A stretch of DNA of 64,000 nucleotides from an uncultured Candidatus Rokubacteria bacterium (GTDB lineage: Bacteria; Methylomirabilota; Methylomirabilia; Rokubacteriales; DASRDR01): contig CAWGVS010000002.1 in NCBI GenBank assembly GCA_963826115.1, positions 160,001 to 224,000 of the forward strand. The letters are read 5' to 3'. Shown piece after piece: positions 27,131 through 54,050 of the stretch (position 1 is the first letter of the stretch; every line of letters starts with the position of its first letter). The notes below the pieces were generated by a model. That model was not told where the DNA came from. It worked only from the letters and a program-made list of their open reading frames with translations, and searched no databases. The position numbers were made by a program, and so were the translations under genes.

Positions 27131-28018
27131 TCATCGCGGCAGGACCGCCTCGGCGAGCGTCCCGGCGATCGCGGTCAAGGCCCGCGCCGCCGCCGCGTCG
27201 GGGTGCTCGAGCACGAACGGCCGGCCGCGGTCCGCGGCCGCGGCGAGCCGCGGGTCGAACGGCACGCGCCCGAGGAAGGCCACGCCGTGCTGGGCAGCCG
27301 TCGCTTCCCCGCCGGGACCGTCGAAGAGCGGCCCGACGGCGCCGCAGGTCGGACAGGCGTAGCCCGCCATGTTCTCGATCAGCCCGAGCAGACGCGCCCC
27401 CCGCTCGCGCGCGAGGGTCATCGCGCGGCGCACGACGAGGTGCGAGACGGCCGAGGGAATCGTGACGACCACGGCGCCGGTCAGGCCGGGCAGGAGGTCG
27501 AGGAGCGTCGGCAATCGCTCGGCGCCCGGCGGCAGGTCGAGGAGCAGCACGTCGAGGGCGCCCCATGCCGTGTCCGCGAGGAACTCCCGGAGCGCGGTCC
27601 CCTCCATGGTCCCGCGCCAGGTGTGCGCCTCGGCCTGGGTCGGCGCGTCCCAGACCACGGGCGTGTCGTCGCCGGGCAGGAGGAGGTCCATCGACAGGAC
27701 CCGGATCCCGTCGGCCGACACGGCGGGGCGAACGCCGTCGGGCGCGACCTCCAGCGTCTGGCCGCGCACGCCGAGCATCTTGCCCATCGACGGGCCGTTC
27801 AGGTCCGCGTCGAGCACGCCGACGGCGAGCCCGCGCGCGGCGAGGGCGCCCGCGAGGTTCGCGGTCACCGAGCTCTTCCCCACCCCGCCCTTCCCCGAAA
27901 CGACCGCGACGCTCGCGCGGACCGGCGCCATCCGGGCGGCGAGCCGCGTCTGCTGCGCGACCACCTGCTCCACGATGTTCGAGCCGCCGTCGCCCGCAAT
28001 GTCGCGATAGCCCTTCAT
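27131..28018 (-). CDS. Mrp/NBP35/ApbC Fe-S carrier ATPase
   Basis: SGKGGVGKS, DADLNGPS, WRG, DLPPG, ENM..CPTC. Confidence 0.88.
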   Translation of the reverse strand: MKGYRDIAGDGGSNIVEQVVAQQTRLAARMAPVRASVAVVSGKGGVGKSSVTANLAGALAARGLAVGVLDADLNGPSMGKMLGVRGQTLEVAPDGVRPAVSADGIRVLSMDLLLPGDDTPVVWDAPTQAEAHTWRGTMEGTALREFLADTAWGALDVLLLDLPPGAERLPTLLDLLPGLTGAVVVTIPSAVSHLVVRRAMTLARERGARLLGLIENMAGYACPTCGAVGPLFDGPGGEATAAQHGVAFLGRVPFDPRLAAAADRGRPFVLEHPDAAAARALTAIAGTLAEAVLPR

Positions 28019-29034
28019 GCGCCGCTGCCCTCGTCGCTGGTGTCGAGCGGGGCCGACGCGGGGTCCCGCAGGTGCGCGCGGAAGCGCCGCATGAGGTCCT
28101 GCCCGAGGAAGTCCCCGGGGGCGCCATGCCGCTCGGCCTCGAAATAGTGCCGGATCCGGTCGAGCCGCTCCTGCGCCTCCGGGTTCAGACTGACGGTGCG
28201 GATCTCGGCCTTCGCGGCGTCGAACGCGTCGAAGGTGAGCTCGGTGAAGCCGAGCTCGCGGATGCGCTTGACGGCCTTCATCATCGCCTGGTTCCGGAAC
28301 CGCGTGAGGAGCGGCGAGTCGATCTCCGCCACGCCCATCCGCCGGGCGCGCCGCTCCGCCGCCTTGCGGATGCCCTCGCGCACGAACTCCGGAGCCGTCT
28401 GGAGCCGCGCCCAGGCCTCGGGGCGCCACCGGACCGGCGTGTCGGGCGCCGCCTGCCAGAGCCGGTCGACGACCTCCGCGGTGACCCGCTCGTACCCGGC
28501 GCGCCGGGCCTCGACCTCGACGTCTCGCTGGAAGAGGCGGAGCACGAAGTCCGCCATCATGGCCGGGGCCTTGCCGAGTCGCGCGACGAGCCGGGCCTCC
28601 GCGTCGGGCGTCCAGGGGAGCGGCGCCGCGGCCGCCTCGGTCTCGGCTTCCGCCTCGGCCTCCCGGATCAGATCATGTGTCACCGCGACCGCTCCGCGCT
28701 CGGCGGCCAGCTCCTCGCAGATCCGGCGCGTCATGGGCCGCATGAAGGAGGGCGCCGCCTCGAGCACCGCCAGCGCCTCCGGCGTCCACGGCGGGGCGGA
28801 CTGCGGGACCTGGTAGGCGCCGCTCTCGGCGAGGCCCATCATCTCGCTCTTGTAGCGGGTCATGAGCTCGGGCGTGATCACCTCCACGCCCTCGGCGCGC
28901 GCCCGCCGCTCGGCCAGCCGCCGGACCATGCCCCGGAGGAAGAACGGCGCGCGCGCGACCCGCGCCTCGGCCTCCGGCGTCCAGCGCACCTCGCCGGACG
29001 GGGGCGGGGCCGGCGCGCCGGATGCGCCGCTCAC
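28015..29034 (-). CDS. Protein of four tandem PCP_red (BchB/ChlB C-terminal-like) domains
   Basis: WTPEAEARVARAPFFLRGMVRR, WTPEALAVLEAAPSFMRPMTRR, WTPDAEARL.., WRPEAWARLQTAPEFVREGIRK; GTG start overlaps the upstream stop. Confidence 0.8.
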   Translation of the reverse strand: MSGASGAPAPPPSGEVRWTPEAEARVARAPFFLRGMVRRLAERRARAEGVEVITPELMTRYKSEMMGLAESGAYQVPQSAPPWTPEALAVLEAAPSFMRPMTRRICEELAAERGAVAVTHDLIREAEAEAETEAAAAPLPWTPDAEARLVARLGKAPAMMADFVLRLFQRDVEVEARRAGYERVTAEVVDRLWQAAPDTPVRWRPEAWARLQTAPEFVREGIRKAAERRARRMGVAEIDSPLLTRFRNQAMMKAVKRIRELGFTELTFDAFDAAKAEIRTVSLNPEAQERLDRIRHYFEAERHGAPGDFLGQDLMRRFRAHLRDPASAPLDTSDEGSGA

Positions 29035-29456
29035 GCCTCGCGGCTCCACGCCGCCCGCGCGAGGATCACGGCCGTGAAGATCGTGAGGAGGCAGAAGGCC
29101 CACGCGCCCACGCGCATCGGCACGTCGAGCCCGAGGACGGGGATGGTCTCCGCGCGAGGCGCCCGGGCGATCCGCGCCACCTCGATCGCGCGGATGGCGA
29201 CCAGCAGGGTCAGGATGCGGGCGAAGTCCCGGCGGGAGAGGAGCCAGCGATCGAGCCACCCGCGCTCCTTCACAAGGAGCCACGGAATCACGATCACGAA
29301 CAGCGCGCCGACGACGAACCACGCCGCGCCCCCACGCTCCATTCCCCGTGGGCCGAGGCCGCTCTGCGCGAGCGCGAGCCCCCCGAGCCAGTAGACGACG
29401 CCGTAGGCGACGTACGTCCATGCGGCCTGGCGGTAGAGCGCGTCCCGCGGGGCCAT
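29031..29456 (-). CDS. Small four-TM membrane protein, unknown function
   Basis: Four hydrophobic stretches; coupled to neighbouring genes. Confidence 0.7.
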   Translation of the reverse strand: MAPRDALYRQAAWTYVAYGVVYWLGGLALAQSGLGPRGMERGGAAWFVVGALFVIVIPWLLVKERGWLDRWLLSRRDFARILTLLVAIRAIEVARIARAPRAETIPVLGLDVPMRVGAWAFCLLTIFTAVILARAAWSREA

Positions 29457-29463
29457 CCCGCGC

Positions 29464-30840
29464 TCAGCCGTCCCCGGCCGTGGGCGGGCGGCCGGCCGCG
29501 GGCGTGAACGGCCGCCCCGGCGAGATGCCCCAGCGGCTCCGCACCTCGGCGAGGATCGCCGGGGTCACGGTCGTCTGCCCCTGGCCGCGCGCGTAGGCCT
29601 CGACCGCCTGGACGACCATGGCGCGGGCGAACGCCGGGATCGCGTCGAGCCGCGCCCGGGCCGCCGGCTCCCACGCGAGCGCGAACCGCGCCTCGAGCCC
29701 GAACGTCTGCTCGACCCCGAGCCGGATCAGCTCGCCGCCGTGGGCGCCGGGCTGGTAGCCGCAAGCCGGGTCCTCGGCGAGATAGTCGCCGTAGGTCGCG
29801 TAGGCGCGGCAGCGGCAGCCGCCGCAGAGCTCGCGGAACTCGCAGGCGCCGCAGCGCCCGCCGAGCGGCCGGTGACGGAGCTCCGTGAAGACTTCCGCCC
29901 GTTCCCAGAGCTCGGCGAAGCCGGTCTCGCGCAGGTTGCCGGCGGACACCGGCATGTACGGGCACGGCGTCACGTCGCCCGTCGGCGTGATGCGGCAGTA
30001 GTACTTCCCGGCCGGGCACGAGCCGTGCGCGTAGTTCGCGAGCAGCGGCGAGCTCGGGTCCAGCTCGTAGAGCACCCGCCGGAAGTGGGGCGCGCACTTC
30101 GCGCGGATCAGGAGGCCGCCGGCCCGGCCGACGGGCACGCTCCAGGGGTCCTCGCGCCGCTCGAGCACGGAGTCGGACGCGGAGCTCTCTGGCGCGCGGC
30201 CCGCCCCCTGAGTCCGGGCCAGATAGGTCAGGATCTCCTCGTACTGCGCGGGTGTGATGTCGGTGAGCCCTTCGCCGCGGCCTGTCCGGACGAGGAAGAA
30301 GAAGTTGAGGACCCGCGCCCCGAGCTCCCGCGCGAGGTCGATCATCGCGGGGATCTCGCCGACGTTCCAGTCGGTGACGCTCATGTGGAGCGAGAAGTCG
30401 ATGCGCTCCGCCCGGAGGGCCTCGGTCGCCCGGATGGCGCCCTTCCAGGCGCCGGGCAGATGCCGGAACTCGTCATGACGCGCGGCATCGACCGAGTCGA
30501 GGGAGAGCGACGCCCCCTGGACGCCGTGGGTCTTCATGAGGCGCGCCTGCTTCGCGCGGAGGAGGACGCCGTTGGTCCCGAGGACGACCGTGAAGCCGTG
30601 CTCCCGCCCCTCGGCCGCCAGCTCGAAGATGTCCGGACGCAGCAGCGGCTCGCCGCCGGTGAGGATCAGGAAGGTCCCGGGGTTCACGCGGGCCATGTCC
30701 GCCATCACCCGGCGGCACTCCTCCGTCGAGAGCTCGCCCGCCGCCGAGGCGCTCGGGGCCCCGCTGATGTAGCAGTGGGCGCAGAAGAGGTTGCAGCGCT
30801 GGGTGAGGTTCCAGGAGACCGCGTACGCCTTGTACGTCAC
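29464..30840 (-). CDS. Radical SAM/SPASM protein (AhbD/NirJ-like) with a C-terminal PCP_red domain
   Basis: WNLTQRCNLFCAHC, TGGEPL, KCAPH, CPAG..PCPY..CGAC..CGGCRC..DPAC; tail WEPAARARLDAIPAFARAMV. Confidence 0.85.
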   Translation of the reverse strand: MTYKAYAVSWNLTQRCNLFCAHCYISGAPSASAAGELSTEECRRVMADMARVNPGTFLILTGGEPLLRPDIFELAAEGREHGFTVVLGTNGVLLRAKQARLMKTHGVQGASLSLDSVDAARHDEFRHLPGAWKGAIRATEALRAERIDFSLHMSVTDWNVGEIPAMIDLARELGARVLNFFFLVRTGRGEGLTDITPAQYEEILTYLARTQGAGRAPESSASDSVLERREDPWSVPVGRAGGLLIRAKCAPHFRRVLYELDPSSPLLANYAHGSCPAGKYYCRITPTGDVTPCPYMPVSAGNLRETGFAELWERAEVFTELRHRPLGGRCGACEFRELCGGCRCRAYATYGDYLAEDPACGYQPGAHGGELIRLGVEQTFGLEARFALAWEPAARARLDAIPAFARAMVVQAVEAYARGQGQTTVTPAILAEVRSRWGISPGRPFTPAAGRPPTAGDG

Positions 30841-30926
30841 TGGATGACGGCCGGTTGCGCCTCGACCGGGGCTTTTCCCGCGAGGACGCTCAGCGAGCCG
30901 GCGATGAACGCGCGCCTGGCCAGCAT
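30837..30926 (-). other. 29-aa micro-ORF resembling an isolated Tat signal peptide
   Basis: MLARRAFIAGSLSVLAGKAPVEAQPAVIQ; its TGA overlaps the rSAM GTG (GTGA). Confidence 0.35.
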
Positions 30927-31000
30927 CGGAGGGCGCCCGCTCTCGCCAGCCGCCACCGTGGCAACGCCCCGCGCGGCCTCGACCGACGTGACCTCGCCGC

Positions 31001-32902
31001 CTAGCCCTGCGGCTTGTTCTTGATGTAGCCGGCGATGACCTCGTTCATCGTGGTGCGGGCGTGGCCGATCCCCTCCTCGCAGACGTCGAGATCGATGAAT
31101 CCGACCTGCTTCTCCCCCGCCACCTTCTCGATCGCCTCGCGGGTCATGTCGCGCATGAAGCCGGCCGGCACGCGGTTCAGACGGGCGACGGCGTCCTCGG
31201 TCCACGTGAAGGCGCCGTTCGGGTCGGTCACGTCCTTGAGGGTCGCCCCGGCGAACTTCGTGTTGGCAATGAGCGTGTCCCAGCCGTCGCCGAGCTTGTC
31301 GCGCCCGACCGTCTCCTCGATGAGCGGGAAGGCGACCTCCTTCGTGATGACGGGGAGCTTCCGCGTCCGCGCGTACTTCTCGATCCGCGCCTTCGCGCGC
31401 CGGCGGAGGTAGGCGTCGGTGACCTGGCGGAGCCCCTCCCGCGCGTCGTTGGCCCAGCGGACCGTCACGCCGGGCATGACCTCCTCCTCGGCGATCCCGC
31501 CCTCCAGGGTGGCGATCTGCTCCACCGCCTTCCGGTCGACGAGGGTGAACGCCTCCGGGCCGCCCGAGCAGACCGGGCACTTCACGACGGGGTTCGGGCC
31601 CTTCACGACGTACCCGCAGACCGAGCAGATCGCCGTCACGGCGGCGTCCTCGGCCCGGAGCTTCGCGACCGCCAGGTCCTCGGCGAGGATCTGCATCTTC
31701 TCGGCCATGCGGCCGGGCATGAAGATCGCCATCGCCTCGTCGATGACCTTCGAGGTGATGACGGTGTGCCCCTGCTCGATCGCGTAGCGGAGGAGCGCCG
31801 TGCGCGCCACCCCGGCCACCTGCTCGGGCACGCGCTTCATCCGGTCCCGGGCCTCGTCCGTCCAGGCGATGATCTCCTCGGCCTTGACGTCGAGCGGCGG
31901 GTAGAACTTGCCGCCCACCAGCAGCACGTTGCACGGGGCCAGGCGGAGCAGGTTCTCCGTGTTCGAGCCGAGGTCCGCCTCCCGCTCGTCCGAGTGGACG
32001 CCGATGCGTCCGAGGATCAGGAGCCAGGGCTGCTCCTTCCGGCAGAACTGGAGCACCTTCTCGAAGCACTTGCCGTCGAGCAGCGTGATCGCGAGGTCGA
32101 CCCCCTCATCGGCCGCGAGCTTCCGGCCGATCTCGAGGTGCGACTGGTAGATCTTCGCGAGCCCCGTGTCGATGATCTCCTCGTGGAGCTGCTCCTGCTC
32201 CTTGAAGCGGAACACCTTCGAGGCCTGCTCGGTGAGCACGCCGACGATCCCGTTGAACATGGCGTAGTGGAGGTACGGGTCGTACACCGCGACCGCGTGG
32301 ACCGGCCGGCGGAGGGCCTTCCCCAGCGCGATGCCGACCTTGAGCCCGTAGAAGGACTGCGGGCTCCCGTCGAGGCCGACGACGATCGCGCCCTGCTGTG
32401 CCTCCAGGGGCTCCAGGCTCCGGATCACCAGCGTGTCGGCCGTGACCTTCCGGATGAAGCGCTCGGTCACCGAGCCGAGCTGGCTGTCGCGCACCGCGCC
32501 CAGGCCCAGCGCGCCCATGATGACGAGGTCGTAGTCCTTGCCCTGCACGTCGTCGATCAGGGCCTTGTAGTGCTTGCCGTCCATCATCCGCGGCTCGAAG
32601 GGCAGCCCGGCGGCCTCGGTCTTCTTCCGCATGACCTCGAGGTAGGAATCGGACACGAGCTGGAGGCCCATGGCGATCAGCGAGTCGTGGATCTTTCGCT
32701 GGCGCTCGAGCTCGTGCTCGTCCCGGTACTCCTCGGGCAGCGTGTACTCCATCTGCTTGAAGCGGTAGTCGTGGAGCCGCGCCGCGTACACGTGGCAGCC
32801 GGTCAGGGTCGAGCCGAAGGCCCGCCCGAGCTCCACGGCGAGGTCGATCGCGCGGTTGGAGTAGTCCGAGTTGTCGACCGGAACGTAGATCTTGCCGAAC
32901 AT
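31001..32902 (-). CDS. Tandem universal stress protein domains + rubredoxin-like knuckle + three PCP_red domains
   Basis: IYVPVDNS..DLVIMGALG..LGSVTE; VVGLDGS..LGSNTENLL; CSVC..CPVC; WTDEARDRMKRVP, WANDAREGL, WTEDAVARLNRVPAGFMR. Confidence 0.85.
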   Translation of the reverse strand: MFGKIYVPVDNSDYSNRAIDLAVELGRAFGSTLTGCHVYAARLHDYRFKQMEYTLPEEYRDEHELERQRKIHDSLIAMGLQLVSDSYLEVMRKKTEAAGLPFEPRMMDGKHYKALIDDVQGKDYDLVIMGALGLGAVRDSQLGSVTERFIRKVTADTLVIRSLEPLEAQQGAIVVGLDGSPQSFYGLKVGIALGKALRRPVHAVAVYDPYLHYAMFNGIVGVLTEQASKVFRFKEQEQLHEEIIDTGLAKIYQSHLEIGRKLAADEGVDLAITLLDGKCFEKVLQFCRKEQPWLLILGRIGVHSDEREADLGSNTENLLRLAPCNVLLVGGKFYPPLDVKAEEIIAWTDEARDRMKRVPEQVAGVARTALLRYAIEQGHTVITSKVIDEAMAIFMPGRMAEKMQILAEDLAVAKLRAEDAAVTAICSVCGYVVKGPNPVVKCPVCSGGPEAFTLVDRKAVEQIATLEGGIAEEEVMPGVTVRWANDAREGLRQVTDAYLRRRAKARIEKYARTRKLPVITKEVAFPLIEETVGRDKLGDGWDTLIANTKFAGATLKDVTDPNGAFTWTEDAVARLNRVPAGFMRDMTREAIEKVAGEKQVGFIDLDVCEEGIGHARTTMNEVIAGYIKNKPQG

Positions 32903-34577: not shown

Positions 34578-34904
34578 TCAATGCTTGGGTGCCTCGAGCT
34601 TCTTCTCGGCGGCGGTCTGGCGCGGCGGGTTCAGCGAGTCCGGCAGCAGCACCAGCACCAGGAGCGTGCCGATCAGGACGGGCGTCAGGGCAATGTAGCC
34701 GAGCGTCTTCGTCTCGAGCTTGAGGTGCATGAAGTAGAGGGCGACCATCGCCGCCTTCGCCGAGGCGAGCGAGACCAGCAGGATGGCGATCACGGTATGG
34801 GGAAGGGGCATGAAGATGACCCCGATCTCGACCACCGTGAGCACCGCCAGGTACCAGAAGATGGCCATGTAGCTCGGGCCGTGCTTCGCATGGGAGTCCG
34901 CCAT
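34578..34904 (-). CDS. Cytochrome c oxidase subunit IV
   Basis: LAVLTVVE, KAAMVALYFMHLK. Confidence 0.85.
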   Translation of the reverse strand: MADSHAKHGPSYMAIFWYLAVLTVVEIGVIFMPLPHTVIAILLVSLASAKAAMVALYFMHLKLETKTLGYIALTPVLIGTLLVLVLLPDSLNPPRQTAAEKKLEAPKH

Positions 34905-34926
34905 CGCGCGCCTCCGCCTCGTCCGG

Positions 34927-35550
34927 CTACAGGAGGTAGATGAAGGTGAACACCATGATCCAGACCAGGTCGACGAAGTGCCAGTACAGCCCGGCCACCT
35001 CCGCGACCATGTAGTTGTAGCGCATGTCCTTCACGCGGCTGATAACCCGCCAGATCACCAGGAGGTAGATCACGCCCGCCGTCACGTGGAGCCCGTGGAA
35101 GCCGGTGATGATGAAGAAGCTGGCCCCGAACAGGGTGGCGCCCCACGGGTTCCCGAAGACCATGAGCCCGCGCTCGATCAGGTGCGTCCACTCGAAGACC
35201 TGGAGTCCGACGAAGATCGCGCCGCCGGCCGCGGTCAGCAGCACGAACTTCTTCGCGCGGGCCAGGTCGGACGCCTGGAGGGCCTCGAGGGCCTTCACCA
35301 TCGTGACGCTCGAGCAGATCAGGAGGAACGTCATGAGCGCGGTGAGCTGGATGCCGAGTACCTGGGCCGGGTTTGGCCAGTCGACGCTCCCCGCCCGCAT
35401 CGCGCCGTAGGACGCCAGGAGTACGCCGAAGCCCACGGCGTCTCCCGCCAGGAAGACCCACATCCCGAGCTTGCCCCAGCTCTCCGGCGTCAGGGGCGAC
35501 TCGGCCGGCTCGACGGCCGGATGGTGCAGGGCAGTTGCCGCGTCGCTCAC
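34927..35550 (-). CDS. Cytochrome c oxidase subunit III (copy B)
   Basis: KLGMWVFL, LICSSVT, TGFHGLHV, GLYWHFVDLVW. Confidence 0.9.
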   Translation of the reverse strand: MSDAATALHHPAVEPAESPLTPESWGKLGMWVFLAGDAVGFGVLLASYGAMRAGSVDWPNPAQVLGIQLTALMTFLLICSSVTMVKALEALQASDLARAKKFVLLTAAGGAIFVGLQVFEWTHLIERGLMVFGNPWGATLFGASFFIITGFHGLHVTAGVIYLLVIWRVISRVKDMRYNYMVAEVAGLYWHFVDLVWIMVFTFIYLL

Positions 35551-35572
35551 GATCCGCTCTCCTTCCGTGCGG

Positions 35573-36268
35573 TCATGCGAGGTAGACGAGCACGTACAAG
35601 ACCGGCCAGAGGGCCACCACGAAGTGCCAGTAGATCGCGCAGCAGTCGAGCGCCGCGTACCGCTCCGCGGTGAACCGGCCGCGCCGCGCGAGCCAGAGCA
35701 TCGCGCCCAGCCAGGCCGCCGCGCCGAACACGTGGGCCGCATGCACGCCGATCAGCGTGTAGAACGTGGCTCCGTAGACTCCCGACGACACCCGCAGTCC
35801 GAAATGGACGAGCCGTGTCCACTCGACCCCCTGGACCACCAGGAACAGCGCGCCGAGCCCCCAGGTCCAGGCGAGCCCGCGCACGAGCCCGGCCCGGTCG
35901 CCCGCCCGGACGGCGCGGAGCGCCCGCACGAGGGTCCAGCTCGACGCGAGCAGGACGAGCGTGTTCACCGCGGTGAGGCCGATGGGGAGCCGCGGCTGGC
36001 CGGGCGGCGGCCAGACCGCCGCCCCCAGCCGCAGCTGGAGGAAGGCGAGCACCAGGCCCCCGAAGAACATGCTCTCCCCGGCGAGGAGCATCCCCATCGC
36101 GAGGCGGGCGTTCGAGAGCGGCGGCCCGTCGGGCCCCGGGGCCCGCTCGCCCTCCCCGTTCCCCTCGTGGGGTCCCGGCGGGCCCGGGATCCGGCCGCCC
36201 CGATCGGGGACGCGGTCCCGCTGGATCTCCGCGGGGCGCACCTCGAGGTCGAGCACGGGCGTGGCCAC
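35573..36268 (-). CDS. Cytochrome c oxidase subunit III (copy A)
   Basis: ESMFFGGL, NTLVLLASS, GVHAAHV, YWHFVVALW. Confidence 0.88.
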   Translation of the reverse strand: MATPVLDLEVRPAEIQRDRVPDRGGRIPGPPGPHEGNGEGERAPGPDGPPLSNARLAMGMLLAGESMFFGGLVLAFLQLRLGAAVWPPPGQPRLPIGLTAVNTLVLLASSWTLVRALRAVRAGDRAGLVRGLAWTWGLGALFLVVQGVEWTRLVHFGLRVSSGVYGATFYTLIGVHAAHVFGAAAWLGAMLWLARRGRFTAERYAALDCCAIYWHFVVALWPVLYVLVYLA

Positions 36269-36270
36269 GC

Positions 36271-36432
36271 TCAGTTCCGCAGCCAGGCCACGGCGGCCGA
36301 GACGAGCATGAGCACGACGATCCACGCCACGAGCCCCCACGCGGTTCGGCGGTTTCGGGTCGCCAGCGAGCTCGGGAGCGCCGGGCGCGGCTCGACGGGT
36401 GACGCGGGAACCACGGACGCGCGCGGGGGCAT
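36271..36432 (-). CDS. Small single-TM protein within the oxidase operon
   Basis: 53 aa; NRRT followed by a hydrophobic helix; fills the gap between ctaB and subunit III. Confidence 0.55.
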   Translation of the reverse strand: MPPRASVVPASPVEPRPALPSSLATRNRRTAWGLVAWIVVLMLVSAAVAWLRN

Positions 36433-36436
36433 CGGG

Positions 36437-37348
36437 CTAGCCCACCTTGTCCAGCGCCATGAGGGCAAGGAGGAGCGGCAGGTACACGACCGAGGCGATG
36501 ACGACCCGCCGCGCGGCGGACTCGGAGGGCCGGAGGGCCTGCGCCGCGCCGGTGGCCAGGAAGAGCGCGCCGAGGAGCAGGGCGCCGAAGAAGTACACGC
36601 CGCCCGTCAGCCCCACCAGGGTCGGCAGGAGCGCCACCGCGTGGAGCGCGAGGCAACCCGTCACGATCTGGCGCTCGGTGCTCCCGCCGTCCGGGTCCAC
36701 CACGGGCAGGACCCGGATCCCCGCGCGCGCGTAGTCGTCGCGGTACAGGCGGGCGATGGCCAGCGTGTGCGGGAGCTGCCAGAGGAACAGGATCGCGAAG
36801 AGCACGCCGGCGCCGATCCCCAGCTCGCCGCGCGCTGCGACCCATCCCGCCACCGGCGGCAAGGCGCCCGGCACCGCGCCGAGCACGGTGCAGAGCGGGC
36901 TCACCTGCTTGAGCGGCGTGTAGACGCCGAGGTAGAGCGCCGACGTCACCGCGGTGACCGCGGTCACCCCGGGACCGACCGCCACGAGGAGGTACAGGAG
37001 GCCGCCGAACGTCGCCAGGACGCCGAAGGCCGCGGCCTCGCCCGGCTGGAGCCGCCCGTCGGGCAACGGCCGCCCGCGGGTACGGAGCATCCGCGCGTCC
37101 ACCTCGCGCTCGAGGAACTGGTTGAGCGCGAGGGTCCCCCCGGCGGCCAGGGCGGTCCCCACGAGGACGTGGAGCACCTGCAGGTAGTCGAGGTCTCGGG
37201 ACGCGCCGAGGTAGTACCCGACGAGCGTGGTCAGCACGACCATCAGGACGACGCGGGGCTTGGCGAGCGACAGGAAGTCCGCGAGGCGGCGCCGGGTGCC
37301 CGCGAGCGCCACCGCGCTCTCGCGCACGACCGCGGTCCGGGACGTCAT
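36437..37348 (-). CDS. ctaB: Heme o synthase
   Basis: LAKPRV, NQFLEREVDARMLRTRGRPL, YTPLK, WQLPH, DYARAG. Confidence 0.93.
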   Translation of the reverse strand: MTSRTAVVRESAVALAGTRRRLADFLSLAKPRVVLMVVLTTLVGYYLGASRDLDYLQVLHVLVGTALAAGGTLALNQFLEREVDARMLRTRGRPLPDGRLQPGEAAAFGVLATFGGLLYLLVAVGPGVTAVTAVTSALYLGVYTPLKQVSPLCTVLGAVPGALPPVAGWVAARGELGIGAGVLFAILFLWQLPHTLAIARLYRDDYARAGIRVLPVVDPDGGSTERQIVTGCLALHAVALLPTLVGLTGGVYFFGALLLGALFLATGAAQALRPSESAARRVVIASVVYLPLLLALMALDKVG

Positions 37349-38265
37349 GCCAGCGCCTCCGTCCGGACCGGCGCGGCCCGGCGCTGCGCGCGGGTCTCGG
37401 CGCCGAGCGCGCGCCGCCGGCCGAGCTGGAGCGCGAGGGCCACCGCGCTCCCCAGGATCAGTGCGCCCACGACCCGGTGGAGCACCGGGAGGGCGACCAC
37501 GGAGAGCTGCCCCCCCGGCACCCAGAGGCTCGTGAAGCGGACCGTGTAGGCGCCGAGCCCGAGGAGGACCTGGACCAGGAGGAGCACCTTCACGGCGCGC
37601 GCCCACCAGGCGAGGACCGGGTCCTCCCCGGCGGCCCGAAGGACCGCGAGGGCCACGCCGACCAGGACGGCGAGCGTCACGACCGCCCCGGCGACGTGCC
37701 ACCAGACCGCCGGGCCGTGCGTCGTGAAGGCGCCGAGGACGACCTGGCCGTAGACGACGACCACCGCGAACCGGCCGAGCACGGCCAGCCGGTCGATCCG
37801 CTCCGGCGCGGCGGACAGCGCCTGCCAGCCGCGGCCCGTCACCACCGCGATCCCGACCAGGAGCCCGAAGAACACCTGGGCGAGACAGCCGTGGACGACG
37901 GCCAGCGCATCCTGCAGGAGCACGACACGGAGTCCCCCGATCAGCCCCTGGATCCCCACCAGGACGACAGCCAGGGCGCCCAGGCCCCGTACCCAGCGGC
38001 GCGCCTCACCGAGCCACAGGGCCACCGCCAAGAGGGCGGTGAGGAGCCCGATCGTGGCCCCGAGGAGGCGATGGCCGTGCTCGACCAGGACGCCCCCCAC
38101 CATCCCCGACCACGGGAACAGGAAGAGGTTGTGCCCGAAGGTGGTGGGCCAGTCGGGCACCGCCAGCGCCGCGCCCGTGTTGGTGACGAGCCCGCCGGCC
38201 ACGATCAGGCCGGCGGTCGCGCCCGCCGTCACGCACGCCAGGCGATGCGGCCACCCGACAGCCAC
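37345..38265 (-). CDS. ctaA: Heme a synthase (COX15/CtaA)
   Basis: GGLVT, PDWP, EHGHR, QGLIGGLRV, VHG, LHRVVG. Confidence 0.88.
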   Translation of the reverse strand: MAVGWPHRLACVTAGATAGLIVAGGLVTNTGAALAVPDWPTTFGHNLFLFPWSGMVGGVLVEHGHRLLGATIGLLTALLAVALWLGEARRWVRGLGALAVVLVGIQGLIGGLRVVLLQDALAVVHGCLAQVFFGLLVGIAVVTGRGWQALSAAPERIDRLAVLGRFAVVVVYGQVVLGAFTTHGPAVWWHVAGAVVTLAVLVGVALAVLRAAGEDPVLAWWARAVKVLLLVQVLLGLGAYTVRFTSLWVPGGQLSVVALPVLHRVVGALILGSAVALALQLGRRRALGAETRAQRRAAPVRTEALA

Positions 38266-38297
38266 CCGCGTCCCCTCCCGCGTCCCGCCCGGACCCG

Positions 38298-40046
38298 TCA
38301 GTGCCCGTGTCCGCCCGATCGGGCGCCGGCCACCACCTGGGTCTGCGGCAGGAAATCCTCGGTCATGCCCGGCACGCTGTACTCGTAGGGGCCCCGGTAG
38401 ACGGTCGGGATCGCGGCCTCCCAGTTACCGTGCGGGGGCGGCGAGGCTGCCTGCCACTCGAGCGTGTTCGAGTGCCAGGGGTTCCGCTCCGCCTTCTTCC
38501 CGCCGACGAGGCTCGAGATGAAGTTCCAGAGGAACAGGATCTGGGACACCCCGAGGATGAAGGCGCACACGGACATGAACACGGCGATGGGCTGGAGGTG
38601 CTGGAGGAACTCGTACTGCGTCGGGTTGTAGATCCGACGCATCATCCCGCCCACGCCCAGGAAGTGCATCGGGAAGAAGACGAGGTTGAAGAACACGAAC
38701 GTCAGGATGGCGTGGAGCTTCCCGAGCGACTCGTTCATCTCCCGCCCGAAGAGCTTCGGGAACCAGAACGTGATGGCCGCGAACATCGCGAAGATGATCC
38801 CCGCCACCACGTAGTGGAAGTGCGCCACGATGAAGTAGGTGTCGTGGATGAAGATGTCGACCGGCGTGATGGCCATGAAGATCCCGGAGAGACCGCCGAT
38901 CGTGAACGTCGACAGGAACGAGATCGCGTGGATCATCGGCGTCGTGAAGCGGATCGAGCCGCCCCACAGCGTCCCGAGCCAGTTGAACGACTTGATCGCG
39001 GACGGCACCGCGATGACCATCGTCGTCAGCATGAACGAGGTGCCGAGCGCGGGGCTCATGCCGCTGATGAACATGTGGTGGCCGTAGACGATCCACGACA
39101 GGAACGCGATCGAGATCATCGAGTACGCCATCGCCCGGTACCCGAAGATCGGCTTGCGCGAGAAGGTCGACAGCACGTCCGAGGTCACGCCCATCGCCGG
39201 AAGGACGAGGATGTAGACCTCCGGGTGCCCGAAGAACCAGAAGAGGTGCTGCCAGAGCAGCACCTCGCCGCCCCCCGACGGGTCGAACCAGTGGGTCCCG
39301 ATCGTCCGGTCGAAGAGGAGCATGGCGCACGCGGACGTGAGCACGGGCAGCGCCAGCAGGAGCAGGATCGCCGTGATGAAGAGGGACCAGATCACGAGCG
39401 GCATCCGGAACAGCGTCATGCCGGGCGCCCGCATGTTGACGACCGTCGTGATGTAGTTGATCGAGCCCATCATCGACGAGACCCCGAGCACGAAGAGGCT
39501 GATCAACCAGAGGTTCTGGCCCCAGTTCACCCCGGTGAACTGGGGGTTGGCGGACAGGGGGGCGTAGGCGGTCCAGCCCGCCGCCGCATGGCCGCCGGGA
39601 ACGAAGAACCCGGCCAGCATGATCACGCCCGACACCGCGCCCGTCCAGAACGAGAGCATGTTCAGCTTGGGGAAGGCCATGTCGCGCGCGCCGAGCATCA
39701 GCGGGATCAGGAAGTTCCCGAAACACCCCACCATGATCGGCATGACCACGAAGAAGATCATCAGGGTGGCGTGCATCGTGAACAGCATGTTGTAGACCTC
39801 GGGCGGGATCACGCCCTCGGTCTCGCGGAACAGCCAGCCCATGCCCGGCACCGGCGTCTCCGGCCAGCCGAGCTGCCACCGGATCAGCATGGCCAGGAAG
39901 CCGCCGATCATCAGCATGAAGAGGCCCATGAACAGGAACTGCCGACCGATCATCTTGTGGTCGGTCGAGAAGATGTACGTGCGCACGAACCCGAGGTCGT
40001 GGTGCTCGTGGACGTCGTGCGCCGCTGCCTTCGCGCTCTGAGCCAT
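38298..40046 (-). CDS. ctaD: Cytochrome c oxidase subunit I, A1 type
   Basis: DHKMIG, TMHA, GWTAY, WFFGHPEVY, HHMF, HDTYFIVAHFHY, MMRR. Confidence 0.96.
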   Translation of the reverse strand: MAQSAKAAAHDVHEHHDLGFVRTYIFSTDHKMIGRQFLFMGLFMLMIGGFLAMLIRWQLGWPETPVPGMGWLFRETEGVIPPEVYNMLFTMHATLMIFFVVMPIMVGCFGNFLIPLMLGARDMAFPKLNMLSFWTGAVSGVIMLAGFFVPGGHAAAGWTAYAPLSANPQFTGVNWGQNLWLISLFVLGVSSMMGSINYITTVVNMRAPGMTLFRMPLVIWSLFITAILLLLALPVLTSACAMLLFDRTIGTHWFDPSGGGEVLLWQHLFWFFGHPEVYILVLPAMGVTSDVLSTFSRKPIFGYRAMAYSMISIAFLSWIVYGHHMFISGMSPALGTSFMLTTMVIAVPSAIKSFNWLGTLWGGSIRFTTPMIHAISFLSTFTIGGLSGIFMAITPVDIFIHDTYFIVAHFHYVVAGIIFAMFAAITFWFPKLFGREMNESLGKLHAILTFVFFNLVFFPMHFLGVGGMMRRIYNPTQYEFLQHLQPIAVFMSVCAFILGVSQILFLWNFISSLVGGKKAERNPWHSNTLEWQAASPPPHGNWEAAIPTVYRGPYEYSVPGMTEDFLPQTQVVAGARSGGHGH

Positions 40047-40095
40047 CGTTGTTCCTATCCTCCCTTGCGAGAGACCTCAGTCCGGCGGGTCCGGC

Positions 40096-40752
40096 CTAGG
40101 AAGGCCACTTCTCCTTGAGCCACTTCCCGTAGTCCTCGGGCGTGTGGACGAAGAGGTAACCCTTCATCCCCGAGTGGCCGAACCCGCACAGCTCGGCGCA
40201 CGGGATCTCGTACTTCCCCGGTTTGGTCACCTCGATCCACTGGAGGATCTCGCGGCCGGGCACCGCGTCCTGCTTGAACCGCGCCGTGGGGATGAACACG
40301 CTGTGGATGACGTCCCGCGACCGAAGGTGCAGCACGACCGGTTTGTTGATCGGCACGTGCACCTCGTTGTCGAACGTCTGGTCGTCGGCGGTGTCGAACT
40401 TCCCGTCCGGCCCCGGGTACGCGACCTCCCAGTTGAACTGCTTCGCGGTGATGCGCACGTGGAGGTCCGACTCGGGAACGTGGCTCTTGATCTTCGACCA
40501 GGTCGGGATGGCGAGGAACGTCAGCACCACCAGGATCAGGGAGGGGACGATCGTCCACACCATCTCGAGCGTGGTGTTGCCGTGGCTGTAGACGGCCCGC
40601 CGTCCGGGCCGTTGGCGGTACACGACCAGGAACCACGCCAGCAACACCGTCACGAGCACGAACGCGGCGCCGGTGATGTAGTAGATGAGATAGAAGAGGT
40701 CGTCGAGCTCCTTGCCGTACGTCGCGATGTTCTCGGGGAGCCAGCTCATCAT
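40096..40752 (-). CDS. ctaC: Cytochrome c oxidase subunit II with CuA site
   Basis: LEMVWTIVP, QFNW, DVIHS, CAELCGFGHSGM; no fused cytochrome c. Confidence 0.94.
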   Translation of the reverse strand: MMSWLPENIATYGKELDDLFYLIYYITGAAFVLVTVLLAWFLVVYRQRPGRRAVYSHGNTTLEMVWTIVPSLILVVLTFLAIPTWSKIKSHVPESDLHVRITAKQFNWEVAYPGPDGKFDTADDQTFDNEVHVPINKPVVLHLRSRDVIHSVFIPTARFKQDAVPGREILQWIEVTKPGKYEIPCAELCGFGHSGMKGYLFVHTPEDYGKWLKEKWPS

Positions 40753-41580: not shown

Positions 41581-41597
41581 CGAAACCTTCCTCCTTG

Positions 41598-43883
41598 TCA
41601 TCGAGTCTCGCGCGACGCGGCGTCTTGCCGCCCGCGGGCCCACCGGGCGAGCCCGAGGCCGGCGGCGCCCGACGCCAGCGCCAGGATCGGCGGTACGACG
41701 AACTGCCGCTTCGAGGGCGGCGGCTCGAGCCGCGCATAGTACCAGGTGGAGACGGCGGCCTTCGGGCCGTCGTCCCCCTCCGAGCCGTCCCATGCCCAGA
41801 AGGCCACCGGGAAGAACTCCCCGGGGCGGAAGACGAAGTCCTGCGAGTCCGAGGTCTTGAGCGGCCGCCGGATCACCGCCCGGTACTGGCCGGCGTCGTA
41901 GACGACCTGTCCCTTGGCTTGCACGGCTTCCCCCGCCTGGGGCGTCATCTTCCCCGCTCCCGTTGCCGTGGCCTCGCCCACGTCCCCGCCCGCGCGCCAC
42001 GTCAGCAAGTAGACGGGATGGCTGCCGTCTCCCATCAGGAAGTACGGGCGGTCCCCCGTCCCCTGCCCGGTCGGGAACTGGATGGCGACCATGTCCGGCT
42101 TCGGCGCCCCCTTGGTCGGATCGGACGCCGTCGGGTCGTCCCAGGTCAGGTGAAACACCGCCTCGCGCTCAGTGTACACCGCCCGCACCGTGACGATGTC
42201 GACGGTGGGGTTGAAGTTTCGCGGGTCGACGATGACCTGGCCGACCATGGGGATCGGCCCGCCCGGGCGGCGGGTCCAGAACTCGGCGTTCGGGTCGCTC
42301 GGCACCTCGCCCGCGACCGGTAGAATCGTCAGCAGCGCCGCCAAGTTGAGGCGCTCCGGCCCCAGGGACCGCACGTAGTTCGCGAGGTCCCAGAGGCTCG
42401 CGTCCTTGACGTCGGCGTCCTTCTCGTCCGACTTTCGGTAGTCCTCGACCGAGTCGGCGATGGCCGGCATCGGCGTCCCGGCGACGCCGGTCAGGAGCCG
42501 CATGACCACGTCCTTCCGCTCCGAGCCCCCCCGGAAGTTCCACGGGCTGTGGAGGTTGGCAGGCCGGATCGGGTGGCCCCAGTCGTCCTTCAAGTCGGAT
42601 CCCGGCGCGGGATCCCCGCGACCCGCCTGGCCGTGGCACTTGACGCACTCGAAGGCGTCGAACATCTTCTTGCCCCGGCGCAGCGACGCCTCCGACGAGG
42701 CAACCTCCTTGGGCACGGCGACGGCCTCGAGCTTCGCCCCCTTGTAGCCGTCCGCGAAGGTCTTGATGTAGGCCACGACCGCCGAGCGCTCCTTCTCGGG
42801 GAGCGACCGCCAGGCGGGCATCGACGTCCCGGGCATGCCGTCGGTCACGATCCGGAGCAGATCCTGGTCCGAGGCCAGGGGGCCCCCCACGCTGCGGATC
42901 TTGTACTTCCCGGCGGTGAAGTCGCGCGGCCGCGGGACGAGCAGCTCGGCCGCGGGCCCGTCGCCCTTGCCGGTCGCGCCGTGGCAGCCCACGCAGCGCT
43001 TCTCGTAGACCTGCTTGCCGAGTGCGACGTCGCCCGACTGGGCGGCCGCGGACCGCGGCGCGAGAAGCTCGGCGCCGCCGGCGAGGAGGCCCGTCGTCGG
43101 CCCCGGCTCGACCGGCCGGGCCGCGTGCGACTCCATCACCCGCGGCGGATGGCCCGTCGTCTCGTAGAGGTAGTAGATCACCTGCCAGATCTGCTCGTCG
43201 GTCAGCCGGTCTTCCCAGGCCGGCATCGCCGAGTTCCAGGGCGTCGACTCCTTCGGCAGGCCCGGGCCGCCCTTCGCGATGCGCCAGAACACGTAGCCCT
43301 CGGAGAGCTGGGCGATCGTGTTCGGGCCGGCGAAGTCCGCCGGCTGCGGGTTGAAGCCGTGGGCGAAGTGCCCCCGGCCGTCCAGCAGGTCGCCATGGCA
43401 GTACATGCAGTTCCGGATGTAGGTCGCGGCGCCCGCCGCGAGGTGCTTCTCGCGGTTCCCGGGGTTCGCCTTGATGTCCTTCCGGATCGGCGTGTCGGCG
43501 TGCTGGAGGTTGATCTCCTTCCCCCGGAAGCTGATGGAGTCGGGGGGCGCCGGGTGGACCGCGCGGAGCTCGAGCGGCGCCTCGGCGCGGGCCGCCGCCT
43601 GCGAATACGCGTAGTAGCCGATCAGGAGGGGGATCACCACGCCGAGGACGAGCCGCAGTGGCCGCCGGCGGGGCTCGGTGAGCATCGCCCAGATCGGCGC
43701 CACGAAGGCGCGCCACGAGTCGGAGTCCGACGAGACGTACACCAGGACGGCCATGACCGTGATGGCCATGTACATCGAGAACACGCTGAACGGCATGGGC
43801 GGCCGGATCCCGTACCGGAACAGGAGGGCGGCCGCGACCACGACCAGGGCGGCCTGGAGGAACTTCCCGCGCGGGGTCGGCAT
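41598..43883 (-). CDS. Membrane-anchored triheme cytochrome c fused to an EbdC-like heme b domain
   Basis: CMYCH, CVGCH, CVKCH with distal Met motifs (SAMP, TSMP, TPMP); C-domain LTWDD, PVAFWAWDG, KAAVSTW; N- and C-terminal TMs. Confidence 0.85.
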   Translation of the reverse strand: MPTPRGKFLQAALVVVAAALLFRYGIRPPMPFSVFSMYMAITVMAVLVYVSSDSDSWRAFVAPIWAMLTEPRRRPLRLVLGVVIPLLIGYYAYSQAAARAEAPLELRAVHPAPPDSISFRGKEINLQHADTPIRKDIKANPGNREKHLAAGAATYIRNCMYCHGDLLDGRGHFAHGFNPQPADFAGPNTIAQLSEGYVFWRIAKGGPGLPKESTPWNSAMPAWEDRLTDEQIWQVIYYLYETTGHPPRVMESHAARPVEPGPTTGLLAGGAELLAPRSAAAQSGDVALGKQVYEKRCVGCHGATGKGDGPAAELLVPRPRDFTAGKYKIRSVGGPLASDQDLLRIVTDGMPGTSMPAWRSLPEKERSAVVAYIKTFADGYKGAKLEAVAVPKEVASSEASLRRGKKMFDAFECVKCHGQAGRGDPAPGSDLKDDWGHPIRPANLHSPWNFRGGSERKDVVMRLLTGVAGTPMPAIADSVEDYRKSDEKDADVKDASLWDLANYVRSLGPERLNLAALLTILPVAGEVPSDPNAEFWTRRPGGPIPMVGQVIVDPRNFNPTVDIVTVRAVYTEREAVFHLTWDDPTASDPTKGAPKPDMVAIQFPTGQGTGDRPYFLMGDGSHPVYLLTWRAGGDVGEATATGAGKMTPQAGEAVQAKGQVVYDAGQYRAVIRRPLKTSDSQDFVFRPGEFFPVAFWAWDGSEGDDGPKAAVSTWYYARLEPPPSKRQFVVPPILALASGAAGLGLARWARGRQDAASRETR

Positions 43884-43887: not shown

Positions 43888-44724
43888 TTAGGGCTTGGCC
43901 TTGGCGGCGGGCTGGCCGGCGGCGGGAGCCGCGCCGCCCTTGAGCGTCAAGAGGAACGCGACGAGATCGAGGTACTCCCGGGCCGCGAGCTGCTGCCCGA
44001 AGGTCTTCGGCATGACGTTCGGCGGGAACCCGGAGACCGTGCCCTTCGAGGCGGGGTCCAGGATCTTGCCCATGATGTACTCCGGCGTCTGGCTGCCGGC
44101 GATGTTCGAGAGGTCCGGCCCGACCGGGCTCGCCCCGATCGCCCCCGCCTTGTGGCAGGCGATGCACGCGCCCTTGCCCATGAACACCGCCTGGCCCGCC
44201 TTCGGATCGCCCGGCAGCTCGATCGAGGCGGCGGCGCCGGCGGCGGCCGCCGCGATCTGCGGCACGTCGTCGAGCTTGACGTCCACGCTGCCGCCCTGGC
44301 TCTCCAGGAAGGCCACCACGGCCCAGAGCTCGCTCCGGTTCAGGCCGATCGGCGGCTTCGACACGTTCGGCATGATGTTGGGGAAGCCCTCGACCACGTA
44401 GGCGGACGGGGTCAGCAGGGACTCGACCAGGTACGCGGCCGCCCGGGTCCCGGGCTTCCGGGTCGCCGCGCGCCCGCCCACGCCCGCGAGGTCGGGCCCG
44501 CGCCCGGCCCGGCCGATGCCGTGGCAGGTCGTGCACTGGCCCTTCTCGCGGAAGATCCGCTCGCCGGCGGCCACGAGCTGCTCAGGGGTCACGCTGCCGC
44601 CCTCGAGCGAGAGCTCCTCGGGAGGCTTCGACTCGATCTGGGGGATCGAGTTCGCGTACCAGGTGTAGCTGCCCATCACCGCCAGGGCGAACGCGCCCAC
44701 CTTGACCGTCACGGGCAGCGCCAT
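43888..44724 (-). CDS. Membrane-anchored diheme cytochrome c
   Basis: CTTCH..NIMP; CIACH..NVMP. Confidence 0.9.
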   Translation of the reverse strand: MALPVTVKVGAFALAVMGSYTWYANSIPQIESKPPEELSLEGGSVTPEQLVAAGERIFREKGQCTTCHGIGRAGRGPDLAGVGGRAATRKPGTRAAAYLVESLLTPSAYVVEGFPNIMPNVSKPPIGLNRSELWAVVAFLESQGGSVDVKLDDVPQIAAAAAGAAASIELPGDPKAGQAVFMGKGACIACHKAGAIGASPVGPDLSNIAGSQTPEYIMGKILDPASKGTVSGFPPNVMPKTFGQQLAAREYLDLVAFLLTLKGGAAPAAGQPAAKAKP

Positions 44725-44732: not shown

Positions 44733-46559
44733 CTACGCCTCCGGGCTCCCGCCGGCGATGGGGGCGGGCGCCGGATGTCCGCCGGGCGCCTTGGCGTCCG
44801 TGAGGGGCCCCTTCTCTCCGAGACCGCCGAGCCAGAAGATGAACATCACCATCAGGAAGAACAGGATGGTGGTGATGGTGATGATGTTCGCCGCGTAGCC
44901 GAGGGCCGGTGTGAGCGCGTCGGGCGACCGGTCCTGCATCACGCCATAGACGTGCCAGTGCTGCCGGATCCCCGACCGCGCGAAGCCCATGAGACCCATC
45001 AGCCAGGTGAAGGTCACGGCCAGCAGGATCAGCACGTACTGGGAGCGCGGCGCGATCGTGCCCCAGCGGATGGTCCCGGTGGATCGGGCCCCCTTGAACA
45101 TCGGGATGTCGATCGCCATCACGATGACGATGCAGAGCAGGACCGACCCCACCTGCAACGGCGAGAAGCGCCGGATCCGGACAATGGCCTCGACGAAGTA
45201 CCCGCCGAGGCCCAGGCCGATCACCGCGGCGCCCGCGAGGGCGAACGTCAGGTACTGGAGCATCATCCCGAAGCGGGCCCACGACACGGTCGGCTCGCGG
45301 TTCGCCCGCCGATACAGGAGGTACGAGAAGAAGGTCGTCAGGATCATGAGGTTCACCGCGGTGTTCTTCGCGGTCATGACCCCGAAGAACCGCAGGAACC
45401 GGTGGTCCGACCCGCCCATGGCGCGGACCTCGCCGAGCGACGCGATGAGGCTTCGCGGGGTGGCCCACACCATGAACCCGAGCGCGATGATCAGGAGGAG
45501 GTACTTGATCCAGGGTCGGAAGCGCTCGGCCCCGGGGATGCGCTCCATCCCGAGCCAGAGGTAGTAGTTCGAGCCCAGGAAGAGCACGCCGATGAGGATG
45601 GCCTGGACGATCCAGAGCCACGACATGAAGCCGCCCATCATCGTGATGCCCATCGTCTGGTTGTAGCCGTAGATCTCGAAGCCGAGCCAGTACCCGGCGA
45701 ACGGGAGCACCATCAGCGCCGAGAGCGCCACGAAGTTCCCGATGTACCCCATCCAGTCGTAGCGCGCCCGCTCCTCGTCCGTCTTGGCGCCCAGGAACCG
45801 GAACGCGGCGTACCCGGCGACGATGGTCCCCCCGAACACGAGGTTGGCGATGAGGCGGTGGATGTTGACCGGCATCCAGGTGAAGTTGTTCACGGCTTGC
45901 CAGAGGGTGCCCGTGAACTTCCCGCTCTCGTCCACGCCGGCCGGCGAGATCATGAAGGTGACCCACGAGTTCGAGACGAACAGGATGGCCGTGCCGAGGA
46001 GGTTCGACAGCACCCCGATCGCCACGTGGAGCCCCTTCCGCGGCCCCGACAGCCAGTGCCAGCCGTAGTACCAGAGGTACACGGTGAACGTCTCGGCGAA
46101 GAACAGGCCCGCGTAGAGCCACATCGTGGGCGCGAAGATGCCGCTCATGAACGTCCAGAACCGCGGGTACAGCGTGATCAGGAGGAACAGGAGCAGGCCG
46201 CCCAGGAGCGCCGTGGTCGAGAACGCCGCGAACGTGAGCTTGACGAACTCGTGGGAGAGCCAGTCGTACCGGCGCCCCTCCTCGCGGTCCATCCCGATCC
46301 GCCAGCCCATGAACTCGATGATCACGGCGAAGATCGGAACGCCCAGGATGAACGCCGCGAAGTTGAGGTGGATCTGCGCGATCACCCAGATGGCAAGCCG
46401 CGAGCCGATGAAGGGGAAGGCCCGGTAGGCGGCGTCCTTCTGCTCCTGGGCCCAGCCGGGCGTCGCCAGGAGCGCGACCGCGGCGGCGGCCAGGACCAGC
46501 GGAAGGACGCGCGCGAGCCGCGACGGTGCGGGCTCGCTCGGGGTCACGGGCGGCCGCAC
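44733..46559 (-). CDS. Cytochrome bd subunit I-like (CydA-like) protein, non-canonical
   Basis: AQIHLNFAAF, FFAET, LH, NIHRLIAN, RSGIRQHWHVYG (GRQPW-like); many TMs; no cydB nearby. Confidence 0.82.
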   Translation of the reverse strand: MRPPVTPSEPAPSRLARVLPLVLAAAAVALLATPGWAQEQKDAAYRAFPFIGSRLAIWVIAQIHLNFAAFILGVPIFAVIIEFMGWRIGMDREEGRRYDWLSHEFVKLTFAAFSTTALLGGLLLFLLITLYPRFWTFMSGIFAPTMWLYAGLFFAETFTVYLWYYGWHWLSGPRKGLHVAIGVLSNLLGTAILFVSNSWVTFMISPAGVDESGKFTGTLWQAVNNFTWMPVNIHRLIANLVFGGTIVAGYAAFRFLGAKTDEERARYDWMGYIGNFVALSALMVLPFAGYWLGFEIYGYNQTMGITMMGGFMSWLWIVQAILIGVLFLGSNYYLWLGMERIPGAERFRPWIKYLLLIIALGFMVWATPRSLIASLGEVRAMGGSDHRFLRFFGVMTAKNTAVNLMILTTFFSYLLYRRANREPTVSWARFGMMLQYLTFALAGAAVIGLGLGGYFVEAIVRIRRFSPLQVGSVLLCIVIVMAIDIPMFKGARSTGTIRWGTIAPRSQYVLILLAVTFTWLMGLMGFARSGIRQHWHVYGVMQDRSPDALTPALGYAANIITITTILFFLMVMFIFWLGGLGEKGPLTDAKAPGGHPAPAPIAGGSPEA

Positions 46560-52986: not shown

Positions 52987-53000
52987 TCGTCCGACCTCTC

Positions 53001-53624: not shown

Positions 53625-53639
53625 CTTCCATCCTCCTCG

Positions 53640-54044: not shown

Positions 54045-54050
54045 GGTGCC

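Follow-up and report, generated by a model that had tools for sequence, protein, structure and literature searches.

A PCP_red gene module in a Rokubacteria genome as a candidate cofactor-maturation system for a CydA-like membrane complex

The analysis concerns a run of genes encoding PCP_red domains in a 64 000-nucleotide stretch of an uncultured Candidatus Rokubacteria bacterium (GenBank assembly GCA_963826115.1, contig CAWGVS010000002.1, positions 160 001 to 224 000; this whole stretch is called the window, and coordinates are given in it). On balance, we think that these genes constitute a dedicated cofactor-maturation module for a CydA-like (`bd-like') membrane complex, and not for the adjacent aa3 oxidase. 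All are on the minus strand, in the following order: a 633-residue universal stress protein (USP) with the architecture USP-USP-PCP_red-rubredoxin-PCP_red-PCP_red (31001..32902; Pfam; 75–97% identity within 80 loci); a 458-residue radical S-adenosylmethionine (SAM)/SPASM enzyme related to AhbD and NirJ2 with PCP_red at its C-terminus (rSAM; 29464..30840; assigned using Pfam, NCBIfam, motifs and a tree); a 141-residue membrane protein with about four hydrophobic segments and no Pfam family (29031..29456); PCP4, of 339 residues, with four PCP_red copies and a conserved C-terminal helical domain (28015..29034; Pfam, alignment and model); and a variant Mrp/NBP35 ATPase of 295 residues (27131..28018, ATG at 28018; Pfam, NCBIfam and motifs). 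The start of PCP4 was taken as GTG from the overlap and from homologues. An earlier, sequence-only reading of the window had described most of these genes as translationally coupled; this holds at two of the four internal junctions (4-nt stop/start overlaps at membrane gene/PCP4 and PCP4/Mrp) and not at the others, with gaps of 7 nt (rSAM to membrane gene) and 160 nt (USP to rSAM). The same reading had not listed the membrane protein, which is conserved inside the run.

Gene order was analysed in USP loci (the 80 best of 542 relatives, nearly all from Rokubacteria). Among the 55 loci with 6 kb of downstream sequence, rSAM and Mrp were present in all 55, the membrane gene in 54 and PCP4 in 12; CoxI lay upstream of USP in 46 of the 49 loci with 8.5 kb of upstream sequence. 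Co-occurrence was profiled in 151 Methylomirabilota genomes, which are drafts at least 85% complete and are related to one another. The CydA-like gene was found in 94 genomes, the Mrp variant in 89, USP in 93, any CoxI in 141 and ZnPCP, a further PCP_red protein described below, in 93; rSAM was found in 93 after the removal of four genomes that held paralogues only. Jaccard indices of the module genes were 0.87–0.91 with the CydA-like gene versus 0.70–0.73 with the close CoxI orthologue (rSAM and CydA-like overlap in 88 of 99 genomes, 0.89), and by this comparison the aa3 oxidase was ruled out as the client of the module. At least one of Mrp, ZnPCP and USP was held by all 94 CydA-like genomes, and seven module genomes gave no CydA-like match. 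A further ten genomes have the CoxI orthologue and neither the module nor a CydA-like match, and both are missing from two whole genera (g12, 0 of 11 genomes; g16, 0 of 6). No other gene predicted the presence of the module as well as the CydA-like gene. In a distant lineage (38–60% identity), the CydA-like gene, cytochromes, USP and Mrp form one run in five of 27 loci; these five are near-copies and contain no haem-copper oxidase. The respiratory linkage proposed in the sequence-only reading is therefore conserved, with the CydA-like cluster as the apparent partner in place of the oxidase operon.

The bd-like cluster of the window comprises the CydA-like membrane protein (44733..46559, minus strand, start uncertain; Pfam PF01654, E = 1.1e-13), a dihaem cytochrome c (43888..44724, minus strand; Pfam, NCBIfam and gene order) and a protein with cytochrome c and EB_dh (haem b γ-subunit-like) domains (41598..43883, minus strand; Pfam; TIGR03477 at 117.6 bits, below 169.85). 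The last resembles `alternative NxrC', which partners bd-like oxidases; this partner and its cluster have been described (PMC6606698), the cluster also in PMC9040806. A set of CydA-like, cytochrome c and EB_dh-type proteins is shared with the bd-like clusters of Nitrospira, Nitrospina and anammox bacteria (alt_NxrC and two cytochromes c) and with the TO complexes of Manganitrophus; unlike these, the present genome has no DMSO-reductase type II α-subunit over the cut-off. The available passages on those clusters name no maturation genes. A link to nitrite oxidoreductase was rejected, the genome having no TIGR03479 match over the cut-off. A second type of CydA-like cluster (L110–L111, L113 and L117; G030, G107 and G099) has a three-copy PCP protein and a membrane gene of its own; its CydA-like protein is about 55% identical over the first 410 residues and has a different histidine pattern.

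The rSAM sequence contains the CX3CX2C radical SAM motif and the full eight-cysteine SPASM spacing of AhbD (C249–C360; reference spacing from PMC10452713). The best family matches were TIGR04545 (AhbD, 298.6 bits) and TIGR04055 (NirJ2, 292.4 bits), both about 200 bits under cut-offs of 500; the highest-scoring PCP-tagged relative reached 329.1 bits on TIGR04545, and peptide-maturase models scored far below the haem-type models. For phylogeny, 102 of the 150 best representatives had both motifs, of which 96 were used (six partial or odd sequences were dropped) and one was then removed by length; a quick tree was calculated from the catalytic core alone and rooted at the midpoint. In this tree, 22 PCP-tagged and two untagged rows form one branch with a support of 100 (Shimodaira–Hasegawa-like approximate likelihood-ratio test), apart from both the NirJ2 group and a 47-row clade that holds P0337, the only row to pass TIGR04545. 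Compared with AhbD and NirJ2, the enzyme therefore shares both motifs and differs in score, clade, its C-terminal PCP_red and a genome without an AhbA/B match. Many proteins of the AhbD clade (P0303, P0304, P0316, P0347 and others) have long C-terminal extensions. We take these to resemble AhbA/B.

Eight PCP_red domains on three proteins had been counted in the sequence-only reading, and profile searches agree. Using Pfam PF08369 (cut-off 32.5 bits, exceeded by all three proteins), four stretches were found in PCP4 (E = 3.2e-40, 136.3 bits), one in rSAM (residues 390–434, E = 1.6e-11, 44.5 bits) and three in the USP protein (E = 1.3e-22, 79.9 bits); a genome-wide profile scan placed these on the minus strand at 28852–28983, 28657–28788, 28462–28614 and 28300–28428 (PCP4), 29539–29673 (rSAM) and 31733–31864, 31334–31456 and 31073–31204 (USP). 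Six of the eight copies exceed the curated cut-off singly; the other two score 23.5 and 26.6 bits. Sequence matches were obtained to the structures 2kru, 2l09, 2ynm_D and 3aek_B. The three-helix fold of 2kru and 2l09 was matched by the PCP4 model with Z-scores of 8.3 (2kru) and 8.0, and by the ZnPCP model with a Z-score of 9.7 (root-mean-square deviation 1.3 over 55 positions). The PCP4 model is modest (predicted local distance difference test, pLDDT, of 63; predicted template-modelling score of 0.32) and the fold search barely probed its C-terminal domain. As pairwise identity among the copies is only 18–50%, they appear to be old and diversified, and the repeat motif quoted in the sequence-only reading stands as a domain family and not as a core shared by every copy.

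The same sequence and fold occur at the C-terminus of subunit B of dark-operative protochlorophyllide oxidoreductase (DPOR; BchB/ChlB; 2kru and 2ynm_D) and in the stand-alone Nostoc protein Asr4154 (2l09). As in DPOR, PCP_red here occurs beside a SIMIBI-class ATPase; unlike in DPOR, it is present in one to four copies on unrelated proteins, and the conserved core is gone from three copies. In DPOR, the PCP_red domain of subunit B is taken here to touch BchL. Contact of BchL with BchB is documented in PMC12022308, in passages that are silent on the PCP_red domain. DPOR itself, absent according to the sequence-only reading, indeed gave no match to PF00148 (DPOR/nitrogenase component 1) across the 99%-complete genome. 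Ranked behind 2kru and 2l09, the closest folds were AAA+ lids (MCM, Z = 6.5; RuvB, 6.0; BchI, 5.6), and the lid-like N-terminal docking domains of the polymerase B subunits DP1 and Pol α p68 matched with Z-scores of 5.8–6.2. This is the same small helical fold (Z = 5.5–6.5), in a range that is common among small helical bundles. A RuvB-lid profile matched PCP_red with a score of 22 versus at most 13 in 40 shuffles, at an hhalign probability of only 41%. A role of PCP_red as carrier of an AAA+ sensor-2 arginine was considered and not adopted: the invariant Arg aligned about three positions after what we take to be the RuvB sensor-2 Arg, and because of this offset catalytic equivalence is unsupported. 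By analogy, a lid-like fold may suit a docking role. By features, DUF2621 (PF11084) clusters of Bacillota lie near PCP_red (score 0.84; 22% of members with PF08369).

The ATPase retains the deviant Walker A sequence GKGGhGK[ST] (as defined in PMC6345978) in all 72 aligned orthologues of the Mrp variant, as do Mrp/ApbC/NBP35 Fe–S carriers, whose conserved CxxC bridges a [4Fe–4S] cluster. Unlike those carriers, 47 of the 72 orthologues have a deletion of the CxxC segment, a motif without which ApbC/Mrp cannot bind the cluster (PMC6345978); it is kept in the window copy, in 25 of the orthologues and in all 26 distant copies. The subfamily has its own N-terminal extension, and the window protein scores 167.3 bits on the ApbC equivalogue PRK11670 (cut-off 348). 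A separate canonical Mrp elsewhere in the genome, with a SUF-associated domain, scores 307.1 bits. The deletion of CxxC and this second Mrp weaken the earlier assignment of the protein as an ordinary ApbC-type Fe–S carrier.

ZnPCP, the ninth PCP_red gene, was found by the genome scan on contig C4 (90133–90669; L154) and encodes 178 residues with a Zn ribbon, a Cys-Pro-Phe motif and PCP_red. The motif, to which we ascribe a haem-regulatory role, precedes the PCP domain in most alignment rows, and the gene follows a membrane gene that is presumably DUF502-like. ZnPCP and Mrp co-occur in 84 of the 98 genomes with either. It is the most constant neighbour of Mrp, lying directly 3' of it in all 25 distant loci with downstream sequence (of 27; several near-copies) and likewise directly after it in all nine Mrp loci from other families, a biased choice of regions picked around PCP matches. 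The predicted complex of an Mrp dimer, ATP/Mg and full-length ZnPCP scored 0.55 versus 0.00 for the best control, with at least 73% of contacts agreeing between runs and a partner pLDDT of at least 63. Among 157 solved pairs, 116 reach the score mark, against two of 215 mismatched pairs (18 and two at scores of 0.60 or less). One in-frame PCP4–Mrp fusion (P0124) was found among 120 listed longer relatives. Together, the fusion and the complex weakly suggest that Mrp contacts a PCP_red protein, as had been proposed earlier.

In the USP protein, each of the two USP domains has a motif of the form G-2x-G-9/10x-G(S) (at positions 130 and 298), which we take to be of the nucleotide-binding type, and the rubredoxin CxxC…CxxC is kept in all 88 orthologues. 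PCP4 consists of more than repeats, with about 80 conserved residues of helical character after copy 4. Full-length PCP4 is present in 12 of 12 genomes of the same family, and other families match only partly; there, copy 4 of PCP4 and the helical domain X after it recur in a PCP-X-PCP-PCP protein, in shuffled order. Atlas clusters of the PCP-X-PCP-PCP type are commonest in Nitrospirota. The closest rSAM relatives carry one to four PCP copies, which, with the shuffling, agrees with the modular reuse of PCP_red proposed in the sequence-only reading.

From the observed co-occurrence, gene order, domain content and folds we infer the following substrate, product and contacts. The three-cluster rSAM would take an iron-porphyrin, either coproheme or haem b, as its substrate and so make haem for the bd-like complex, with the USP–rubredoxin protein as a scaffold that binds nucleotides and relays electrons. 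ZnPCP, moved to contig C4 here, and the variant Mrp dimer would form an ATP-driven chaperone that loads Fe–S clusters on rSAM or hands its product on; where Mrp has lost CxxC, metal ligands could come from partners. The PCP_red domains, as small AAA+-lid-like bundles, would be reusable interaction modules that hold the parts together; their copy number and order vary freely. Given such a module, we would put even chances on unmodified haem b, produced locally, as the product; a modified haem is somewhat less probable and any other product unlikely. That PCP_red itself docks on Mrp is possible, a little short of an even chance. A bolder proposal is that the PCP-tagged rSAM clade makes a novel haem derivative as the catalytic cofactor of the bd-like protein and that PCP_red is a detached AAA+ lid that docks on the variant Mrp and on the nucleotide sites of USP and gates them, which together would be an ATP-driven synthesis and insertion machine; we regard this as doubtful.

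Several observations weigh against assignment of the genes to bd-like maturation. The function of the bd-like protein is itself unproven (PMC6606698 and PMC9040806). As the genomes are related, the shared occurrence could stem from an island that is transferred as a single block, and PCP4 is missing from most loci. The rSAM lies outside the clade with the single TIGR04545-passing sequence; its tetrapyrrole chemistry is a conjecture from the nearest families, as are its substrate and product. The P-x-F-x-R core is kept in five of the eight PCP_red copies and absent from the first two USP copies and from PCP4 copy 3. ZnPCP is far from Mrp in most Rokubacteria; the complex passes weakly, involves a partner from outside the window and gives no resolved interface, the score not separating PCP_red from the Zn ribbon as the binding part. 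The PCP4–Mrp fusion is a single sequence (six contigs, a cluster of one) with a possibly lost stop codon, and a search for ZnPCP fusions among longer proteins returned two matches, neither with Mrp.

Likely counterparts in Nitrospira marina were compared in published proteome data (PMC8115632, supplement 4; spectra at atmospheric versus low O2). A 699-residue USP id adjoins that of a 460-residue SPASM rSAM, a 306-residue partitioning-type ATPase adjoins a 257-residue PCP_red protein, and a bd-like subunit lies two ids away from a 159-residue PCP_red protein. The counts of spectra were 112/132/125 versus 132/97/128 for the USP protein, 38/43/44 versus 32/18/27 for rSAM and 43/38/37 versus 24/19/13 for the ATPase; four short USPs were significantly up at low O2. 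These proteins are likely to be the module counterparts, abundant at atmospheric O2 and not induced at low O2. The match was made by annotation, length and adjacency of ids only, which also tempers the bd-like assignment.

Of the alternatives, a general role in haem synthesis deserves most attention, although we consider it rather unlikely: rSAM would be an AhbD/ChdH-type coproheme decarboxylase for the general haem pool, a low-oxygen back-up for ChdC, with the USP, Mrp and PCP_red proteins as helpers. AhbD is indeed its best NCBIfam match, with the full SPASM motif. The genome encodes ferrochelatase, HemE and HemY, together with a ChdC-like gene that stays below the HemQ cut-offs, whereas AhbA/B and HemF were unmatched and HemN fell below the cut-off; AhbD is known from coproporphyrin-pathway bacteria that lack other Ahb genes (PMC13564367). 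The ChdC/HemQ-like protein (C5, 904976–905683; L143), far below the NCBIfam cut-offs, occurs in 88 of the 151 phylum genomes. Both it and rSAM are present in 58 genomes, this one included, rSAM only in 35, the ChdC-like gene only in 30 and neither in 28. The 35 genomes would suit a replacement; the 58 and the 30 would not, and the distribution of rSAM tracks the bd-like protein, not the absence of ChdC. A low-oxygen back-up is also at odds with the likely N. marina rSAM, which, unlike the four short USPs, was not induced at low O2. Judged by its motif match, sub-cut-off scores, separate clade and these counts, rSAM is AhbD-like and not a demonstrated AhbD, and no simple replacement for ChdC.

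A quite unlikely alternative, closest to the sequence-only reading, treats every PCP_red copy as a tag that docks on the Mrp dimer, in the manner of BchB on BchL, with Mrp delivering Fe–S clusters or electrons to the tagged proteins. It would account for the shared SIMIBI class of Mrp and BchL, the PCP4/Mrp overlap, the fusion, the weak support for the complex and the retention of CxxC here and in the distant copies. It fits poorly with the CxxC deleted from most orthologues, that motif being essential for cluster binding, and with PCP4, which has no cysteine cluster motif to load. The otherwise conserved F and R are missing from USP copy 1 and from PCP4 copy 3, and yet both copies are conserved themselves, which points to specialized roles. 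Still less probable is a redox- or energy-sensing set, in which USP (ATP), rubredoxin and the Cys-Pro protein gate the assembly or activity of the respiratory complexes and rSAM modifies a protein instead of a cofactor. The nucleotide motifs of both USP domains, the invariant rubredoxin centre and the Cys-Pro-Phe of ZnPCP would all be in keeping with it; the absence of DNA-binding and kinase domains, the low peptide-maturase scores and the likely N. marina counterparts, unresponsive to O2, would not. The sequence-only interpretation as a whole is partly supported, and maturation of the bd-like complex is the reading that we retain.

The bd-like proteins, themselves uncharacterized, are the proposed answer to the question of how O2 is reduced by Nitrospira and related lithotrophs, which lack a canonical haem-copper oxidase (PMC6606698 and PMC9040806). 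Should these proteins depend on the module, they could not be produced successfully in a foreign host in its absence, and it would point to the genes required for co-expression and to the enzyme for an assay. PF08369 would also gain a function outside chlorophyll synthesis, and an Mrp subfamily able to work without its Fe–S motif would be defined. Listings of the open literature on PCP_red/PF08369, alone or together with USP, Nitrospira, bd-like, anammox or Rokubacteria, showed no description of the module, most papers being judged from the listing (subscription papers lay outside this scope). The bd-like-specific profile, the separate rSAM clade, the loss of CxxC, the displaced ZnPCP with its weak complex pass and the proteome check are new here.

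Of the remaining features, the haem-copper oxidase genes (CoxII, CoxI, CtaA, CyoE, two CoxIII and CoxIV; 34578..40752, minus strand; Pfam) sit between the bd-like cluster and the PCP_red module in Rokubacteria. They are flanked by two related secreted carboxypeptidase-regulatory-like proteins (32941–33705 and 40882–41583), which bd-like clusters also hold. An M20 hydrolase 3' of Mrp was dropped as a module member, being present in only six of the 80 loci. A scan of the window for promoter-like sites found none, and the single plus-strand terminator-like site is at chance level. The gap between USP and rSAM (30841–31000) is a variable site, reaching 2–3 kb in some relatives (L017 and L040). An ordinary ribosomal protein/secY/adk/map cluster with a short RpoA-like gene occupies 51776–63888.

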